Virus record (IMG/VR): IMGVR_UViG_2534681999_000018 | Location: 1-14,827 of that record | DNA: 14,827 nucleotides | Direction: 5' to 3' (one strand) | Source of the DNA: a virus | Taxonomy: Duplodnaviria; Heunggongvirae; Uroviricota; Caudoviricetes | Shown: in pieces, positions 7,902 through 13,366 of the stretch | How positions within the stretch are numbered: the first letter of the stretch is position 1 | Layout of the letters: each line of letters starts with the position of its first letter | Program-made: the position numbers and the translations under genes | Notes under the pieces: generated by a model | What the model was told of the DNA's origin: nothing | What the model saw: the letters and a program-made list of their open reading frames with translations, nothing else | Databases searched by the model: none

Positions 7902-8153
7902 ATGACCCAAAAACGCAGAGACAGAACAGAGCCAAAATATAAAGCGTTAGACATGACTGAGCACACCTTAAAGGTGGCAATCAGAACGATAGACCGCCAC
8001 ACGCGGGAAGGATACGCGAAGGAACATCCCGACCTGATAAGCGCATTCATGACCACGGCGGCGGCAAACTTTGCCACGCTGACAGAACGGGAGATTGCCG
8101 AAGCGGAACAGGTAACAACCATCAACGTTAAAACCGGAGAGGTGGAATTATGA
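7902..8153 (+). CDS. Hypothetical protein
   Basis: Track ORF 7872..8153 begins with GTG inside the iterons; ATG at 7902 preferred; stop overlaps the ssb start (ATGA). Confidence 0.45.
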   Translation: MTQKRRDRTEPKYKALDMTEHTLKVAIRTIDRHTREGYAKEHPDLISAFMTTAAANFATLTEREIAEAEQVTTINVKTGEVEL

Positions 8154-8560
8154 CGGCACAGATAGCCGCTTACGGGCGGCTGGTGGACGACCCGCAGGTA
8201 AAACAGACCAGCAAGGGCACACCGATGACGCTGGCGCGTATGGCGGTATCTTTGCCATGCAGCCAGGCACAGGACGGACAGGCGACGTTATGGTTATCGG
8301 TCATCGCATTTGGCAAACAGGCCGGCTTCCTGGCTAAACATCAAAAAGGCGATGTTGCCAGCGTATCCGGCACGATGCAGGTAAGCCAGTGGACCGGACA
8401 GAACGGAGAAACGCGGCAGGGCTGGCAGGTTATCGCAGACAGCGTAATCAGTGCCCGCGCGGCACGTCCAGGCGGGAACAGACGCAAAACCACAGGCACA
8501 CAGGGTAATCAGCCACCAGCGGGAGGCGATGACCCTTACGGTGATGATATTTCGTTCTGA
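8150..8560 (+). CDS. ssb: Single-stranded DNA-binding protein (SSB)
   Basis: 136-aa ORF; OB-fold-like N-terminal region, Gly/Pro/Gln-rich linker and acidic C-terminal tip DDPYGDDISF resembling the SSB DDDIPF tail. Confidence 0.8.
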   Translation: MTAQIAAYGRLVDDPQVKQTSKGTPMTLARMAVSLPCSQAQDGQATLWLSVIAFGKQAGFLAKHQKGDVASVSGTMQVSQWTGQNGETRQGWQVIADSVISARAARPGGNRRKTTGTQGNQPPAGGDDPYGDDISF

Positions 8561-8570
8561 GGGGGTGACG

Positions 8571-8843
8571 ATGGTACATGACCGCATAGCGGAGGAACTG
8601 GAGGCGAAAGGCTTTTACCGGAGGGCGGCGGCGCGATGGGGTGAAGTCATGCAGCTGGTGGAGACAGACAAGGAACGGCATCACATCACGATGCGACGGC
8701 TGGAATGTTCAAGGAAGGCACAGAGGGCACCGGAGCCGCCGGATAATTTCGGAGACCTGAAAAAGGCAGTCGATCGCACTTATGCCGAAATGGGTATAGA
8801 TGGTGCTGGTGATGAAATATGGCGCAATTACCAGGACAGCTAA
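8571..8843 (+). CDS. PerC/Pch-family transcriptional activator homolog
   Basis: 90-aa product from ATG 8571 (GAGGGGG RBS); N-terminal MVHDRIAEELEAKGFYRRAAARW matches the recalled PerC-family signature. Confidence 0.6.
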   Translation: MVHDRIAEELEAKGFYRRAAARWGEVMQLVETDKERHHITMRRLECSRKAQRAPEPPDNFGDLKKAVDRTYAEMGIDGAGDEIWRNYQDS

Positions 8844-8849
8844 TCAAAC

Positions 8850-8873
8850 AGCCGGAGAAATCCGGCTTTTTTT
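8850..8873 (+). terminator. Rho-independent terminator, copy 1 of a repeated terminator motif
   Basis: GCCGGAGAAATCCGGC hairpin followed by 7 T, just after the perC-like stop. Confidence 0.75.
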
Positions 8874-8969
8874 GCACCAGTTGAAACGGTATGGCGCATT
8901 ACCGGGTTTTCGTCACGGTCAGGCATAGTTACTATCTGAAACAAACAGACACAACAGAGGAAAAAAACA

Positions 8970-9194
8970 ATGCCGATGAAATTTGATGAGATATTAAAAC
9001 AGCGTGATAAATACCATGCTGACAACATGGAGACGATGAGCATCAATGATTATCGCGCATTCCTGGAGACGGGCGCACTGATTGAAAAGGATCAGCATGG
9101 TTTTGTGAGATGTGCTCTATCCGGTGAAATGCTGGCGGTAAATCCTGAACAGATAGATGCATTGATAGAATTTCTGAAAGAGATCAGAGACTGA
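8970..9194 (+). CDS. Hypothetical protein, moron-like (own unit between two terminators)
   Basis: 74-aa ORF with GAGGAAAAAAACA upstream of the ATG; flanked by terminators at 8850-8873 and 9215-9236. Confidence 0.5.
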   Translation: MPMKFDEILKQRDKYHADNMETMSINDYRAFLETGALIEKDQHGFVRCALSGEMLAVNPEQIDALIEFLKEIRD

Positions 9195-9214
9195 GCCAGC
9201 ACACAGCACACATA

Positions 9215-9236
9215 GCCGGAGCAATCCGGCTTTTTT
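9215..9236 (+). terminator. Rho-independent terminator, copy 2 of the repeated motif
   Basis: GCCGGAGCAATCCGGC hairpin followed by 6 T; one loop mismatch relative to copies 1 and 3. Confidence 0.75.
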
Positions 9237-9248
9237 GCGCCCAAAAAA

Positions 9249-9284
9249 AGCCCGATAAGGTCAGAGGGTTCTTATCGGGCTTTT
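9249..9284. terminator. Second hairpin, potentially bidirectional terminator
   Basis: AGCCCGATAAG / CTTATCGGGCT stem flanked by an A-run upstream and T-run downstream. Confidence 0.5.
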
Positions 9285-9360
9285 GCATATGAGGTTTTTG
9301 GATGCACTGGCGTTCGTGATCGGGATAATCATTTCATAATTTGCAACATAACTCAATATC

Positions 9361-9411
9361 ATTGCATAAAATGCAATTCTGATTATAATCAGGACTGGAT
9401 AAACATCCAGT
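9361..9411 (+). promoter_or_regulatory. Promoter upstream of the capsid operon overlapped by three palindromes
   Basis: TTGCAT (9362-9367), 16-bp spacer, TATAAT (9384-9389); palindromes ATTGCATAAAATGCAAT (9361-9377), CTGATTATAATCAG (9379-9392) and ACTGGATAAACATCCAGT (9394-9411). Confidence 0.55.
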
Positions 9412-9445
9412 TATGATTTTTTTAGTCGAAGAGGAATTTCTTACT

Positions 9446-9652
9446 ATGGCTGAAGAGAAAAAAAGCGGTGTTTCGGTGTACATAAGCCCCGAAATCGTGG
9501 AGGTGCTCAAGCAGCGCCACAAAAAAAACTATGAAGCTGGCGTTGCGGCTGGACTGGATCCGCTGATGACGCCGGAGCCGTCGATAGGTTCACTTGTACG
9601 CTCTTATTTACTTGCGGCGCTTGGGATGCATAAAAATTATGGGGGTGAATAA
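9446..9652 (+). CDS. Hypothetical protein
   Basis: 68-aa product from ATG 9446 (GAGGAA RBS); stop overlaps the capsid gene start (TAATG). Confidence 0.5.
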   Translation: MAEEKKSGVSVYISPEIVEVLKQRHKKNYEAGVAAGLDPLMTPEPSIGSLVRSYLLAALGMHKNYGGE

Positions 9653-10707
9653 TGGCAGGCAAAGCAACGGCACTTAACACTAACCAGCTTTTCATGTACC
9701 TGAATCGCGGGGATATTGCGGATTTTAAATTCAGCCCTCTGTTTACCACGCTGTTTTTCCCGAACGTGGCGACATTCAGCACGCAAAACATCATGCTGGA
9801 TACCCTGGACATTGAAGAAGTCACCATGTCGGCGTTTTGTTCGCCTATGGTGGGTAGCCAGGTTCAGCGCGATAAAGGGTACGAAACCAGCACAATCAAA
9901 CCTGGCTACATGAAGCCAAAGCACGAAATCGATCCAACGAAAACCATCATGCGCATGGCTGGAGAAGATCCGGCACAGCTTAACGACCCTACCTATCGCC
10001 GTATGCGCCTGATTACTGGCAACATGCGCCGCCAGATAAACGCCATTAAGGCACGCGTGGAATGGCTGGCGGTGAATGCGGTAACGACCGGAAAAAACAT
10101 CATTGAGGGCGAAGGCATAGAACGCTATGAAATCGACTGGAAAATACCGGAAAACTGCATCATAGAGCAGGCCAAGGGTAAAAAATGGTCCGAGCAGGAT
10201 AAAGACATGCACGACCCAATCTATGACATCGAGCTTTATGCTGATCAGGCTGGTTGCCCCGCAAACGTCATGATTATGGGCGCTGAGGTATGGCGCACAT
10301 TACGCAGCTTTAAAAAATTCCGTGAGCTGTACGATCTTTCCCGTGGTTCAGAATCCGCCGCCGAACTGGCCTGTAAAAACCTGGGCGAAGTGGTGAGCTT
10401 TAAAGGCTATCTTGGTGATCTGGCCCTTATCGTCTATTCCGGCAAATACACTGACAGCGATGGTACCGAAAAATATTTCCTTGAGCCTGATTTGCTGGTC
10501 CTGGGTAACACCAACAATAAAGGGCTGGTGGCCTATGGTGCGATAATGGATCAGGAAGCGGTAAGAACGGGCGCAACACAAAACATGTTTTACCCGAAAA
10601 ACTGGATTGAGGACGGCGATCCGGCGATTGAGTACGTGCAGACACACAGTGCACCGCAGCCGGTACCGGCAGATATTCGCAAATTTGTTACCGTCAAAAT
10701 TGGTTAA
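9652..10707 (+). CDS. Major capsid protein, lambda gpE family
   Basis: 351-aa product aligns by eye along its whole length with lambda gpE (341 aa), e.g. FKFSPLF, PGYMKPKHEIDP, DPTYRRMRLI, YSGKY, LVLGNT, YPKNW, HSAPQP. Confidence 0.9.
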   Translation: MAGKATALNTNQLFMYLNRGDIADFKFSPLFTTLFFPNVATFSTQNIMLDTLDIEEVTMSAFCSPMVGSQVQRDKGYETSTIKPGYMKPKHEIDPTKTIMRMAGEDPAQLNDPTYRRMRLITGNMRRQINAIKARVEWLAVNAVTTGKNIIEGEGIERYEIDWKIPENCIIEQAKGKKWSEQDKDMHDPIYDIELYADQAGCPANVMIMGAEVWRTLRSFKKFRELYDLSRGSESAAELACKNLGEVVSFKGYLGDLALIVYSGKYTDSDGTEKYFLEPDLLVLGNTNNKGLVAYGAIMDQEAVRTGATQNMFYPKNWIEDGDPAIEYVQTHSAPQPVPADIRKFVTVKIG

Positions 10708-10719
10708 CGGGGGGATTCT

Positions 10720-11055
10720 ATGGACACTCCATACATTGAGTTATTTGCAGGCAGTCAGCAGGTATCCACGACGTTGGTACATTTTGCCGCTGATGCTGGC
10801 GTTATTCAGGAATTTACCCCGCTGATGCTGGCAGACAATGGCGAGTTTAAGCCGTGGGATGGTCAGGAATCTGGCAAGGCTGTTTATCTGACCTCGTACC
10901 CTGTGGACACGTCAAAGCAGAAATCAGCACAGTGTTACAAGACGGGGATATTCAATATTGCCGCCGTTAACTGGCCTGAGAGCGTCGACACCGATGCGAA
11001 AAAATGCGCCGCCTTTGCGGGTTCCGGCGTATCCGTTCAGCCGCTGGCCCGATAA
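10720..11055 (+). CDS. Head decoration protein, lambda gpD family
   Basis: 111-aa product (lambda gpD is 110 aa) with TPLMLA, YKTGIFN, WPE and AAFAG segments matching gpD; GGGGGG RBS. Confidence 0.85.
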   Translation: MDTPYIELFAGSQQVSTTLVHFAADAGVIQEFTPLMLADNGEFKPWDGQESGKAVYLTSYPVDTSKQKSAQCYKTGIFNIAAVNWPESVDTDAKKCAAFAGSGVSVQPLAR

Positions 11056-11067
11056 GCAGGGGGAACG

Positions 11068-11481
11068 ATGGCAACGAATGAAAGCATCATGACGCTACCG
11101 CTGGCGAGTAAATTTAAAGTCGAAGCGCGGGCAATGGCTGACAGAGGTTTATCAACCTATGAGGCCGTATATCAACTAAACAAACTGGAAGAGCAGGACA
11201 AGCCGTGCGCTGATGCGATTATGGCGCTTCATGAGCATAAAGACTATCAGCCGCTGTTGCGTGCAATGGCAAACGTGCCTTGTATCGATGTTGGTACGGC
11301 TAAAAGCATCCTTAGCATGACCATAGAGCAGGAACGTCCGAAGGTTGCGCCGGAACTTACCGCAGCCTTTGAAAACTTTATGGACATGCACAGCCCGCAA
11401 GCCGTATCAGCTGGCATGGCATACGATGGCAGAAACCAGGGCGATGACGGCGACATCGATCGCATACTGAAAACCATCTGA
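11068..11481 (+). CDS. Hypothetical protein in the capsid/packaging module
   Basis: 137-aa ORF with AGGGGGAA RBS; no recognisable motif; between the gpD-like gene and cos. Confidence 0.55.
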   Translation: MATNESIMTLPLASKFKVEARAMADRGLSTYEAVYQLNKLEEQDKPCADAIMALHEHKDYQPLLRAMANVPCIDVGTAKSILSMTIEQERPKVAPELTAAFENFMDMHSPQAVSAGMAYDGRNQGDDGDIDRILKTI

Positions 11482-11486
11482 GACAA

Positions 11487-11509
11487 GGCCGGAGAAATCC
11501 GGCTTTTTT
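11487..11509 (+). terminator. Rho-independent terminator, copy 3 of the repeated motif
   Basis: GCCGGAGAAATCCGGC hairpin followed by 6 T, identical to the copy at 8850-8873. Confidence 0.75.
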
Positions 11510-11510
11510 A

Positions 11511-11580
11511 CGGGTCCTTCCTGGAATTATGGCCCGTTACGGGGCGGCGACCTCGCGGATTTTCGCTATTTATGAGCCTT
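11511..11580 (+). other. Lambda-type cos site, copy 1 (cosN GGGCGGCGACCT at about 11542-11553)
   Basis: CCCGTTACGGGGCGGCGACCTCGCGGATTTTCGCTATTTATGAG matches the recalled lambda cos junction (…CGTTACG|GGGCGGCGACCTCGCGGGTTTTCGCTATTTATGAA…) almost base for base; lies about 150 bp upstream of the Nu1-like gene as in lambda. Confidence 0.8.
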
Positions 11581-11686
11581 TTCAGGGTGGTGGTGGTGGT
11601 TTTGTTGTTTGATCTATCTTTATGAATGAAAAGGGAAAGATGCAAGCAATACACCAACCTGAAGCAGTAATTAAGTTGGTGTATTA

Positions 11687-12229
11687 ATGAAATCTCATCT
11701 GATGAACAAAAAAAACATGGCGAAAAGCTGCCGTGTAAGTGCGACAGCGTTCGACAAGTGGGGAGTAACTCCCGTTGAGCGTAAAGGCCGTGAGGCGTTT
11801 TATGATGTTGCCAGCGTGATAGAAAATAGGGTTAACAATGCAATTAGCCAGCTTATAAACGACAAAGGCGAGATTGACGATGATGAACTTTTACGAGTCA
11901 GGATCAGATTACTGACAGCACAGGCAGAGGCGCAGGAACTTAAAAACGATCGCGATCGCGGTGACGTGATTGATACTGAGTTTTGCCTGTACGCGCTTTC
12001 AAAGCTGGCGAGTCAGATTTCATCAATCATGGACAGCCTCCCGCTTACTATGCAAAGGAGCTTCCCACAGATTACCCCCGCCATGCTGGACAGGCTTAAA
12101 AGGGAAGTGGTTAAAGCCTGTAATGCCAGTGCCAGAGTTGCCGACAACCTCCCACAGATACTGGCTGATTACTTGAAAGAAACAACCGGAAACGTACCGG
12201 AAAAGTTGCTACAGAAGAAAGGCGAGTAA
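11687..12229 (+). CDS. Terminase small subunit, lambda Nu1 homolog (element-encoded)
   Basis: 180-aa ORF (alternative start ATG 11702, MNKKNM...); alignable with lambda Nu1 over the whole length (NKK, FYDVASVIE, LLTAQAEAQELKNDRDRGDVIDTEFCLYALSKLASQISSIMDSLPLTMQRSFPQ, PQILADYLKETTG); weak RBS. Confidence 0.85.
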   Translation: MKSHLMNKKNMAKSCRVSATAFDKWGVTPVERKGREAFYDVASVIENRVNNAISQLINDKGEIDDDELLRVRIRLLTAQAEAQELKNDRDRGDVIDTEFCLYALSKLASQISSIMDSLPLTMQRSFPQITPAMLDRLKREVVKACNASARVADNLPQILADYLKETTGNVPEKLLQKKGE

Positions 12230-12257
12230 CAGACGCGCAATTATTGAACAAAAATGA

Positions 12258-12319
12258 GAAAGGATCTGATAATGGCATTTTCTGGCTAAAATGCCTCGTG
12301 TCAGATCCTTTCTTTTTTT
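12258..12319 (+). terminator. Compound hairpin terminator after the Nu1-like gene
   Basis: Outer stem GAAAGGATCTGA / TCAGATCCTTTC enclosing inner stem GGCATTTT / AAAATGCC, followed by 7 T. Confidence 0.6.
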
Positions 12320-12379
12320 AATATTTTCATTGTTAAACAGTCTGTTACAGAGAAGAAGATCGGATCTGACTTTTGCCGG

Positions 12380-12451
12380 AAAATTCTCATAAACAGATAA
12401 AAACCGCGAGGTCGCCGCCCCGTAACGGGCCATAATTCCAGGAAGGACCCG
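12380..12451 (-). other. Lambda-type cos site, copy 2, inverted (cosN reverse complement AGGTCGCCGCCC at about 12409-12420)
   Basis: 12404-12451 is the exact reverse complement of 11511-11558 (48 bp); further lambda-like sequence (TTTATGAGAATTTTCCGG on the minus strand) continues toward the Nu1-like gene. Confidence 0.75.
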
Positions 12452-12484
12452 ACGACACCAGACTATCAGAGCGATGGGGGCACA

Positions 12485-12766
12485 ATGACAGAAGCCGAAC
12501 TACTGGGATTAATCCGCCGCGTCGCCGGAATCAGCCAGCAGCATGACGAACAGGCCACACAGCCGGACAGCGTGACCGCTGAAAATTATGTGCGTGTTGT
12601 AGCGGAAGTGATGCGCCGTGATGGTATAGAACTTAATGGCGTTGATATGCGCAACATACGGAACCGCGTTCTTGAAATGCTGGCCTACAATCGCCGCGTT
12701 GAACTGTATCGGGAGAAAGAAAAAATAACGTACCACTGGAAGAAGCCGGAACGGCTGCGGCGGTAA
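12485..12766 (+). CDS. Hypothetical protein
   Basis: 93-aa ORF with GGGGG RBS; outside the inverted cos pair; no recognisable motif. Confidence 0.5.
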   Translation: MTEAELLGLIRRVAGISQQHDEQATQPDSVTAENYVRVVAEVMRRDGIELNGVDMRNIRNRVLEMLAYNRRVELYREKEKITYHWKKPERLRR

Positions 12767-13366
12767 CTTGCTGATATTCCCGATAACGCAAAATTGCGCT
12801 GGCTACATCCTCACATCTGAGGACTGTTAATCAGAAGGCCGGAATATATTCACAAACTACGAAATTTTCGTAGTTTAATTAATGGTCAGATTAATCGCTA
12901 ACCCGCTGATATTTTCGGAAACCTCAATTTGAGGAAGTCGGAAGCGTCACCCTTCATATTCTGAATGGTCATAATGACCACGCAGACCATCAAGGCAACC
13001 ACAACGAACATCGTTACGGTTGGAGCTTTTACCCCACTGGGGGAAAGGTATTACGATAATCATAACACCTACCGAACAGGTAAAACCCACCAGCCTGATT
13101 AACAGTTAACCGGAAAAAAAATCCGGTAGCCCCGTTATGGGGATCCCCATATCGACATTAACGCCCCTCATGAATTGGTGCGCTTCCCCCTGGAAAGATT
13201 ACCCGCCTGTATATTTCTTGTGTCTATTTGTTCCACGTTGTTTCATACAGTGCACCGAACGGTGTAGTTAATGGTGTAGTCAATTTGCTGTTTTTAGCAC
13301 TTTTTGCAGTGTGGGTTGTTTAATTAAATCAATGGGTTGCCTTGCTGTGGTGATAAAAGGACATAT

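Follow-up and report, generated by a model that had tools for sequence, protein, structure and literature searches.

We analysed a stretch of Escherichia coli DNA of 14,827 nt (IMGVR_UViG_2534681999_000018; hereafter the window), and assign its positions 9446-11512 with firm support to the capsid operon in the late zone of a classical Gram-negative phage-inducible chromosomal island (PICI) of the EcCICFT073 family. The operon carries genes for a major capsid protein and a head decoration protein of the lambda type (hereafter E and D), followed by an open reading frame (ORF) of 137 amino acids (aa; orf137). An earlier note on this DNA had regarded the element as a satellite that might supply only shell and decoration subunits to the portal, protease and large terminase of a helper phage, and had proposed this as a different hijacking strategy.

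Genes of the capsid operon

The E gene (9652-10707, plus strand) encodes a lambda gpE-type major capsid protein of 351 aa, the ortholog of c1499 of strain CFT073. Its match to Pfam Phage_cap_E (E=5.5e-50) covers 313 of the 329 profile positions and reaches 170.7 bits, against a gathering cut-off of 22.9. Over 327 aa, the protein shares 43% identity with lambda gpE, with strong conservation of the E-loop region, and superposition of its AlphaFold2 (AF2) model (pLDDT 82) on the lambda protein gave TM values of 0.83-0.87; the model also agrees with PDB entry 3BQW (released 2008), the crystal structure of CFT073 c1499, which is 97% identical to the E of the window. The D gene (10720-11055, plus strand) encodes a head decoration protein of the gpD/SHP type (111 aa, ortholog of c1500) that matches Pfam HDPD (E=5e-18; 65.7 bits, gathering cut-off 29.1) and is 36% identical to lambda gpD; its closest solved relative in a PDB search was SHP of phage 21 (1TD0, E=1.7e-13), and lambda gpD was found with E=4e-9. 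Pfam and the BLAST identities agree with the earlier reading of both genes as full-length homologs of lambda E and D, as does the AF2 model for E, and the coordinates bear out that the order E-D-orf137 is the reverse of that in lambda, where D (5747-6079) precedes E (6135-7160). The families and folds of E, D and the third, Nu3-like protein are those of the lambda and phage 21 head genes, whereas identities are confined to 36-47% and the order in these phages is C/Nu3, D, E.

The third gene, orf137 (11068-11481, plus strand; 96% identical to c1501), encodes a probable Nu3-type scaffold homolog, related to the scaffold portion at the C-terminus of lambdoid gpC. In a comparison with PHROGs, its residues 46-119 match the C-terminal end of phrog_53 (head maturation protease; E=4.7e-9), and tblastn against phages matched only the 3' ends of genes annotated as C/Nu3. 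BLASTP aligned the protein with residues 416-493 of gpC/Nu3 (501 aa) of phage PhiR12_2_star (39% identity, E=3e-11) and with the equivalent part of the gpC (501 aa) of the icd-prophage of CFT073 (37% identity, E=3e-10), and hhalign of the orf137 family profile against an alignment of lambda and PhiR12 Nu3 gave a probability of 95.9% (E=6e-9). A C-terminal tail, FE.FM..HSP.AV..G...DGD.D, is common to orf137 and to gpC of the phage-21/PhiR12/CFT073-prophage type and is lacking in lambda Nu3. BLASTP gave no direct match of orf137 to lambda gpC/Nu3, no Pfam domain was found in the protein, and a profile search of the PDB returned no significant match; the AF2 model is all-helical and of low confidence (pLDDT 48). 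Unlike lambda gpC, the putative scaffold protein of the window is free-standing and without the S49 protease domain. The suggestion in the earlier note that the 137-aa ORF might be a scaffold was thus strengthened by the Nu3 homology. A helix-turn motif, read by eye, apparently occurs twice in orf137, once in lambda Nu3 and three times in the 501-aa gpC. An identification with gpFI, an idea derived from the position of FI after E in lambda, was dropped; no BLASTP match to lambda gpFI was found.

Upstream of E lies an ORF of 68 aa (9446-9652, plus strand; 79 aa if read from a start at 9413) that belongs to phrog_3255, has no Pfam domain and has a counterpart upstream of E in most of the related PICIs examined. 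Its stop codon overlaps the start codon of E by one base (TAATG), and the gaps between E and D and between D and orf137 are 12 nt each. The capsid operon thus comprises four genes, namely the small ORF, translationally coupled to E, then E, D and the Nu3-like gene. It is bounded by terminator-like hairpins of one repeat family (D2), one upstream (9210-9239, plus strand; also found in a terminator scan) and one closing the operon (11483-11512, plus strand), with a third copy at 8846-8875. The copies are near-identical, consisting of AGCCGGAGnAATCCGGC followed by a run of T, and are located after the PerC gene, a 74-aa ORF and orf137, respectively; from their positions, the three hairpins probably split the late zone into insulated units. 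The region 9330-9412 upstream of the operon is AT-rich, with a weak promoter-like site (9333-9362) and a palindrome seen by eye, TGATTATAATCA, at about 9381-9392; it may hold the operon's own promoter and operator.

Other head genes were sought by six-frame tblastn of the window with lambda Nu1, A, W, B, C, D, E, FI and FII as queries, together with sequences from a second lambdoid prophage, namely its portal, its protease-major capsid protein (MCP) fusion and its gpA C-terminal fragment. Of these queries, only Nu1, D and E matched within the element, and portal, protease, large terminase and head-tail adaptors were not found; gpA matched solely at 1217-2095, in an interrupted prophage gene to the left of the integrase. 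The earlier statement that portal, protease, scaffold and large terminase are all missing therefore holds for portal, protease and large terminase, and fails for the scaffold, since orf137 is a Nu3-type homolog. The element also carries a gene that the earlier note did not list, for a Nu1-type small terminase (TerS; 11687-12229). With capsid, decoration, scaffold-like and small terminase proteins encoded, one could think of a capsid-forming PICI (cf-PICI) that builds heads by itself and takes nothing but tails from its helper. We regard this as scarcely credible and as already refuted by gene content: portal, protease, large terminase (TerL), HNH and head-tail adaptor genes, which the definition of a cf-PICI requires, were not found in any frame, and the largest unassigned ORF is shorter than 200 aa. 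The cf-PICIs of the EcCIEDL933 type share with the window the family of the integrase/alpA/replication backbone and the possession of capsid genes, but encode a full set of HK97-type capsid, protease, portal, adaptors, HNH, TerS and TerL, whereas the head and packaging genes of the element in the window are limited to those for E, D, the Nu3-like protein and TerS. An identification of the window with EcCIEDL933 itself was rejected, as the latter is a different element of 15.4 kb with a full head gene set.

A PICI of the EcCICFT073 family and its packaging unit

The view that the element is a satellite was upheld by its overall organization. An integrase gene lies at the left end and is followed by an alpA-type regulator; nearly all genes are on one strand (the assigned satellite genes are all on the plus strand, with the exception of one small YlcI/YnfO ORF); the element has its own replication module (AAA_25/RepA helicase) with DUF4222 and SSB proteins; it measures about 11 kb from the integrase to the right attachment site (attR), within the class range of about 10-15 kb, and is free of genes for lysis, tail, portal and large terminase; it has helper-type cos sites and a TerS homolog; and its late zone is orthologous to that of the type element EcCICFT073, for which induction, excision, replication and helper-dependent high-frequency transfer have been shown experimentally (PMC6092414).

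EcCICFT073 shares with the window the phoQ-side attachment site on the right, the late-zone order (PerC, small ORF, E, D, 137-aa ORF, cos1, packaging gene, cos2 and a 93-aa ORF) and two exact cosN sites at equivalent positions. The identities to c1499, c1500 and c1501 are 97% for E, 98% for D and 96% for orf137, the CFT073 proteins having been assigned to these three locus names by length and order. The two elements differ in the packaging slot, which holds RppA (c1503, 144 aa) in EcCICFT073 and a Nu1-type TerS (180 aa) in the window, and in the left third of the window (integrase, AlpA, Bro-N), which derives from a different, prophage-embedded PICI. Even closer is the roxA-phoQ PICI of E. coli O157:H7 (TW14359, EC4115), with the same E, D, orf137, TerS, both cos sites and attR (100% identity over 4882-14827); the EC4115 island had already been listed as a PICI in a 2018 supplement (PMC6092414). 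Positions 1-4881 of the window do not come from that island and hold another integrase module and a prophage gpA fragment instead.

The TerS of the window (11687-12229, plus strand; 180 aa, full-length) matches Pfam Phage_Nu1 (E=3e-23) and phrog_57 (E=8e-53). It is 36% identical to lambda Nu1 from end to end, including the C-terminal gpA-binding region, and shows no detectable similarity to RppA of CFT073. Its gene is flanked by two cos arms, cos1 (11511-11586, plus strand), with an exact lambda cosN 12-mer at 11542-11553, and cos2 (12376-12451, minus strand), which repeats cos1 in inverted orientation and has its minus-strand cosN at 12409-12420; the number of cosN matches was not reached in any shuffle of the window. 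The arms form inverted repeats of 76 nt that are 91% complementary, so that the two cosN face in opposite orientations, and the same inverted geometry surrounds rppA in CFT073. Both cosN sites of EcCICFT073 have been published as functional cos sites.

The earlier note had also divided known satellites into those that remodel the capsids of helpers and those with a complete set of head genes. This division does not stand, as it leaves out the SaPIbov5 protein Ccm, c1499 and c1500 themselves, and the major capsid gene present in 21 of the 29 reference Gram-negative PICIs, where it is not required for transfer (2023; PMC10111431). Like the E of the window, Ccm is a satellite-borne homolog of the helper's major capsid protein in a cos-packaged island without portal and TerL. 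It differs in that it redirects capsid size and blocks the helper, neither of which was seen with the c1499 ortholog, and it is unrelated in sequence and has no decoration or scaffold partner.

Lineage, selection and possible role of the capsid genes

The E gene has a ratio of nonsynonymous to synonymous substitution rates (dN/dS) of 0.13-0.17, with dS up to 0.32, and is under purifying selection. For D and the 137-aa ORF dN/dS is below 1, with few substitutions, and all of these ORFs are intact in four divergent alleles from different islands; selection maintains the capsid genes. Among 5,426 complete E. coli genomes, 493 carry the 3.4-kb cassette. Beyond E. coli, homologs of E with identities from 86% down to 51% occur in Escherichia, Salmonella, Edwardsiella, Lelliottia, Serratia and others, and every context examined (Escherichia, Salmonella and Serratia, down to 51% identity) was a PICI with E followed by D. 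These contexts include chromosomal PICIs at several attachment sites, PICIs inserted in the E gene of the helper and one PICI in a P2-like prophage; the gene following D varies among the lineages and is Nu3-like (137 or 141 aa), an AlpA-like ORF or absent. The phages examined have D before E, no phage in the collection encodes an E more than 47.5% identical to that of the window, and the E of the helper-type prophage of CFT073 is 45% identical to it. Gene order and divergence together suggest that the E-then-D pair is an old, PICI-specific lineage.

The earlier note had named as an alternative that the genes are remnants of a degraded head operon from a prophage; this, like decay from a formerly complete cf-PICI, we reject as very improbable. 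In favour of decay, the head gene set is partial, and Williams and colleagues have proposed cycles in which late genes are captured and then lost (PMC10111431). The intact alleles and the low dN/dS of E speak against it, as do the E-then-D order, which PICIs of several genera share and none of the examined phages has, the distance to the nearest phage E, the tight spacing of the operon between terminator-like hairpins, and the finding that the CFT073 protein folds and has been crystallised (3BQW). A decayed PICI in E. coli O121 (locus L006, 1929-12079), in which the integrase is truncated next to an IS21 and the primase split by an IS110-family element, nonetheless keeps E, D and the 137-aa ORF intact.

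Several satellites show how shell genes of PICIs and helpers may be related. PICIs that are inserted in the E gene of their own helper carry the E-D pair (loci L011 and L012; also PMC10111431), and in the E of one of these (L011, 10001-11041) residues ~165-260 are far more lambda-like than the remainder, a patchwork that suggests patchy recombination with helper capsid genes. A PICI embedded in a gpA gene (L002) has its own ClpP-protease/major-capsid fusion gene, and the heads of its host prophage are of the protease-MCP-fusion type; the PICI and prophage copies (29776-31665 versus 35401-37380) are 52% identical, and L002 is a second case of a diverged satellite copy of a helper shell gene, for another head type. 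In Salmonella, a PICI with the E-D pair (L015, GCA_005980655.1, 3292-10812; E 51% identical) lies among the tail genes of a P2-like prophage. A predicted protein of 463 aa with both Phage_cap_E and HDPD domains (P0030), apparently an E-D fusion, was seen on one short contig and may be a sequencing artefact.

Functional data are available for the near-identical genes of CFT073. Fillol-Salom et al. (2018; PMC6092414) named c1499 a putative capsid and c1500 a head decoration protein, and found that deletion of c1499 or c1500 neither restored plaquing of lambda nor changed transfer by resident prophages. Islands with c1499::cat or c1501::tetA still transfer (PMC6092414), and c1499::cat with c1500 and c1501 intact transfers better, not worse. 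The packaged DNA of EcCICFT073 was all phage-sized (PMC6092414), no PICI monomer band was seen upon induction of CFT073, and a 2019 review noted that EcCICFT073 has a capsid homolog yet normal-sized capsids. When genes downstream of the origin were cloned singly, only c1503 (RppA) blocked lambda (2019; PMC6739421), and overexpression of single capsid genes did not inhibit lambda, phage 80 or HK97 (PMC6739421). We found no later functional paper on c1499 in a search of the literature available to us. The earlier observation of the shell genes is therefore real but not new, the gene pair having been in the literature since 2018 and the structure since 2008, and knock-outs exist.

Because these published data show transfer without the genes, we reject the strategy proposed in the earlier note: there is no independent mode of transfer in which the satellite builds its own shell on a borrowed portal. 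Transfer and lambda interference were unchanged in the c1499 and c1500 deletions and the DNA was of phage size; loss of the E-like gene without effect on transfer, which the note itself had named as evidence against its proposal, has thus been in print for an ortholog 97% identical to the E of the window.

The identity of the operon is near certain; as to mechanism, we favour with modest confidence the view that E, D and the Nu3-like protein are accessory and dispensable shell subunits. A lambdoid helper would induce the PICI, and the island would replicate; the PICI TerS (Rpp in EcCICFT073) would replace or join the helper TerS and direct the helper gpA terminase to the PICI cos; and PICI concatemers would be packed into full-size heads of the lambda type, nucleated on the helper portal and matured by the helper protease. 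For the ortholog it has been shown that a lambdoid helper induces the island, that the island replicates and that helper terminase packs it from the island cos into phage-sized heads. E, D and the Nu3-like protein of the PICI would join or supplement helper assembly as accessory subunits that are not needed when the helper supplies its own shell proteins, and selection might keep the genes for situations in which the helper capsid gene is interrupted (as in helper-embedded PICIs), defective, limiting or poorly matched. The PICIs with an E-D pair in the helper E gene and the fusion copy of L002 support a helper-related role for the shell genes, although neither demonstrates function. Several points weigh against this view. 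Incorporation of PICI E or D into particles is so far hypothetical; the E proteins of PICI and helper are 43-47% identical, a distance that puts co-assembly with the subunits or portal of a helper in question; the Salmonella E-D PICI of L015 resides in a P2-like prophage with a different head type and fits poorly with a backup matched to the helper; the third gene varies by lineage (Nu3-like, AlpA-like or absent); and the 2018 authors report no phenotype for c1499 (PMC6092414).

The published deletions have a further property that bears on their reading. c1501, the ortholog of the 137-aa scaffold-like gene, served as a marker insertion site (PMC6092414), and both the c1499 and the c1500 deletion were built in the c1501::tetA island. 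If the three proteins act together, the deletion strains may already have been module-null, so that the case for an intact three-gene module without any effect is less strong than it seems. Moreover, the size of particle DNA was examined with lambda only, the Nu3 of which is without the tail common to orf137 and the 501-aa gpC.

From this it could be argued that the three proteins form a unit which, like SaPIbov5 Ccm and SaPI1 CpmB, assembles an alternative, possibly smaller PICI shell on the portal of a cognate helper, with the Nu3-like protein engaging the capsid protein through its helper-like C-terminal tail. We think this unlikely, and equally doubtful its corollary that the unit works only as a set and only with helpers whose gpC has the tail (the phage-21/PhiR12/CFT073-prophage type), the PICI shell then possibly being smaller. 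The absence of a phenotype in the published work would then be explained by the prior disruption of c1501 by tetA and by the use of lambda, with its tailless Nu3, in the test of particle size. The tail that orf137 shares with gpC of the cognate type and not with lambda Nu3, the location of E, D and orf137 in one insulated operon, and the small capsids made by PmCI172, a PICI with a capsid homolog, would all fit such a unit. Against it stand the phage-sized particle DNA of EcCICFT073 and the missing monomer band upon induction of CFT073, the improved transfer of c1499::cat with c1500 and c1501 intact, the lack of inhibition of lambda, phage 80 and HK97 by single overexpression, and the many PICI lineages that have E-D without a Nu3-like gene.

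A role in interference or defence, in which the capsid homologs would be built into the heads of rival lambdoid phages other than the helper and poison them, seems to us improbable. PICIs commonly interfere with phages, an E diverged to 43-47% identity from phage E could act as a dominant-negative subunit, and purifying selection in the absence of a transfer phenotype is compatible with such a function. However, deletion of c1499 or c1500 did not relieve interference with lambda, overexpression left plaquing of lambda, phage 80 and HK97 unreduced, RppA accounts for the interference, and poisoning requires neither a decoration protein nor a scaffold fragment.

Most enterobacterial PICIs keep an old, selected and structurally complete pair of capsid and decoration genes for which no assay yet shows an effect. 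If the module is functional, it would represent an intermediate between satellites restricted to remodelling the capsids of helpers and cf-PICIs, which make theirs themselves. The Nu3-type neighbour, the selected, PICI-specific lineage and the scaffold-disrupted background of the deletions, which together with the purifying selection on E are the new elements of this analysis, sharpen the question of what the genes do.

Mosaic origin of the window and neighbouring genes

The window is a mosaic of two satellites, an embedded PICI (1-5102) and a chromosomal PICI (4882-14827). Positions 1-5102 are 99.8% identical to a PICI in the gpA gene of a lambdoid prophage of strain 57_142493, and positions 4882-14827 are 100% identical to the roxA-phoQ island of many O157:H7 genomes; a stretch of about 220 bp at an Icd-like gene is common to the two parts. 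Both parent elements are present, in opposite orientation, in O157 genomes, and recombination between them, with a large inversion, would yield the junction. This mosaic junction is absent from all 5,426 complete E. coli genomes.

At the window's left end, a DUF1441 protein (687-1163, plus strand) is followed by an N-terminal ATPase fragment of the gpA large terminase of a lambdoid prophage (1160-2167, plus strand; Pfam GpA_ATPase, E=6e-82), which lies outside the satellite, the left end of the latter being inserted in the gpA gene. The fragment retains the ATPase half (335 aa), and the nuclease half is not in the window; RefSeq describes the fragment as a terminase pseudogene without its C-terminus, and in L002 the C-terminal half is found beyond the satellite. 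The left junction agrees with a published site of helper-embedded PICIs (HE-PICIs), A:Terminase_1:245 (PMC10111431). HE-PICIs (e.g., 11capE; PMC10111431) thus share with the window a left junction inside a lambdoid gpA and the carriage of an E-D pair, and the integrase/AlpA/Bro-N module of the window is the part that is 99.8% identical to the embedded PICI of strain 57_142493. They differ in that both of their ends lie in one prophage late gene, in the orientation of which the element runs, whereas in the window only the left end does so and the right junction is chromosomal (phoQ), not the second half of gpA.

At that right junction, attR of the phoQ-side PICI (13211-13285) corresponds to the direct repeat D1 that flanks the O157:H7 TW14359 element, and was placed by mapping the TW14359 repeat onto the window (offset 4119). 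The exact shared block is CGGTGTAGTTAATGGTGTAGT (13260-13280), and the right end of the element lies about 80 bp from the stop codon of phoQ (13367-14827, minus strand). The late zone ends with a conserved ORF of 93 aa (12485-12766, plus strand; phrog_1561), in which no Pfam domain was found and which also occurs in CFT073, in locus L005 and in the L002 satellite.

All genes of the left and middle part of the satellite to which functions could be given are on the plus strand. The tyrosine integrase (2329-3567; Pfam Arm-DNA-bind_3, Phage_int_M and Phage_integrase) is followed by an AlpA-like helix-turn-helix (HTH) regulator (3560-3784), for which the match to HTH_17 is weak and the L002 counterpart is annotated as an HTH regulator; PF05930 (Phage_AlpA) occupies the equivalent position in related PICIs. 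A Bro-N protein is encoded at 3844-4422, and a DUF4222 protein (6005-6304) precedes the gene for the replication helicase of the RepA/AAA_25 type (6301-7701; Pfam AAA_25, E=2e-43; 'helicase RepA family protein' in RefSeq), with an SSB at 8150-8560 (Pfam SSB, E=9e-16). A PerC-family regulator (8571-8843; Pfam PerC, E=1e-42; coordinates from the RefSeq CDS of the O157:H7 island, locus L001) lies just upstream of the capsid operon, as it does in other E. coli PICIs; for the PerC homologs of PICIs, published work conflicts on whether they activate, repress or ignore the LEE virulence island.

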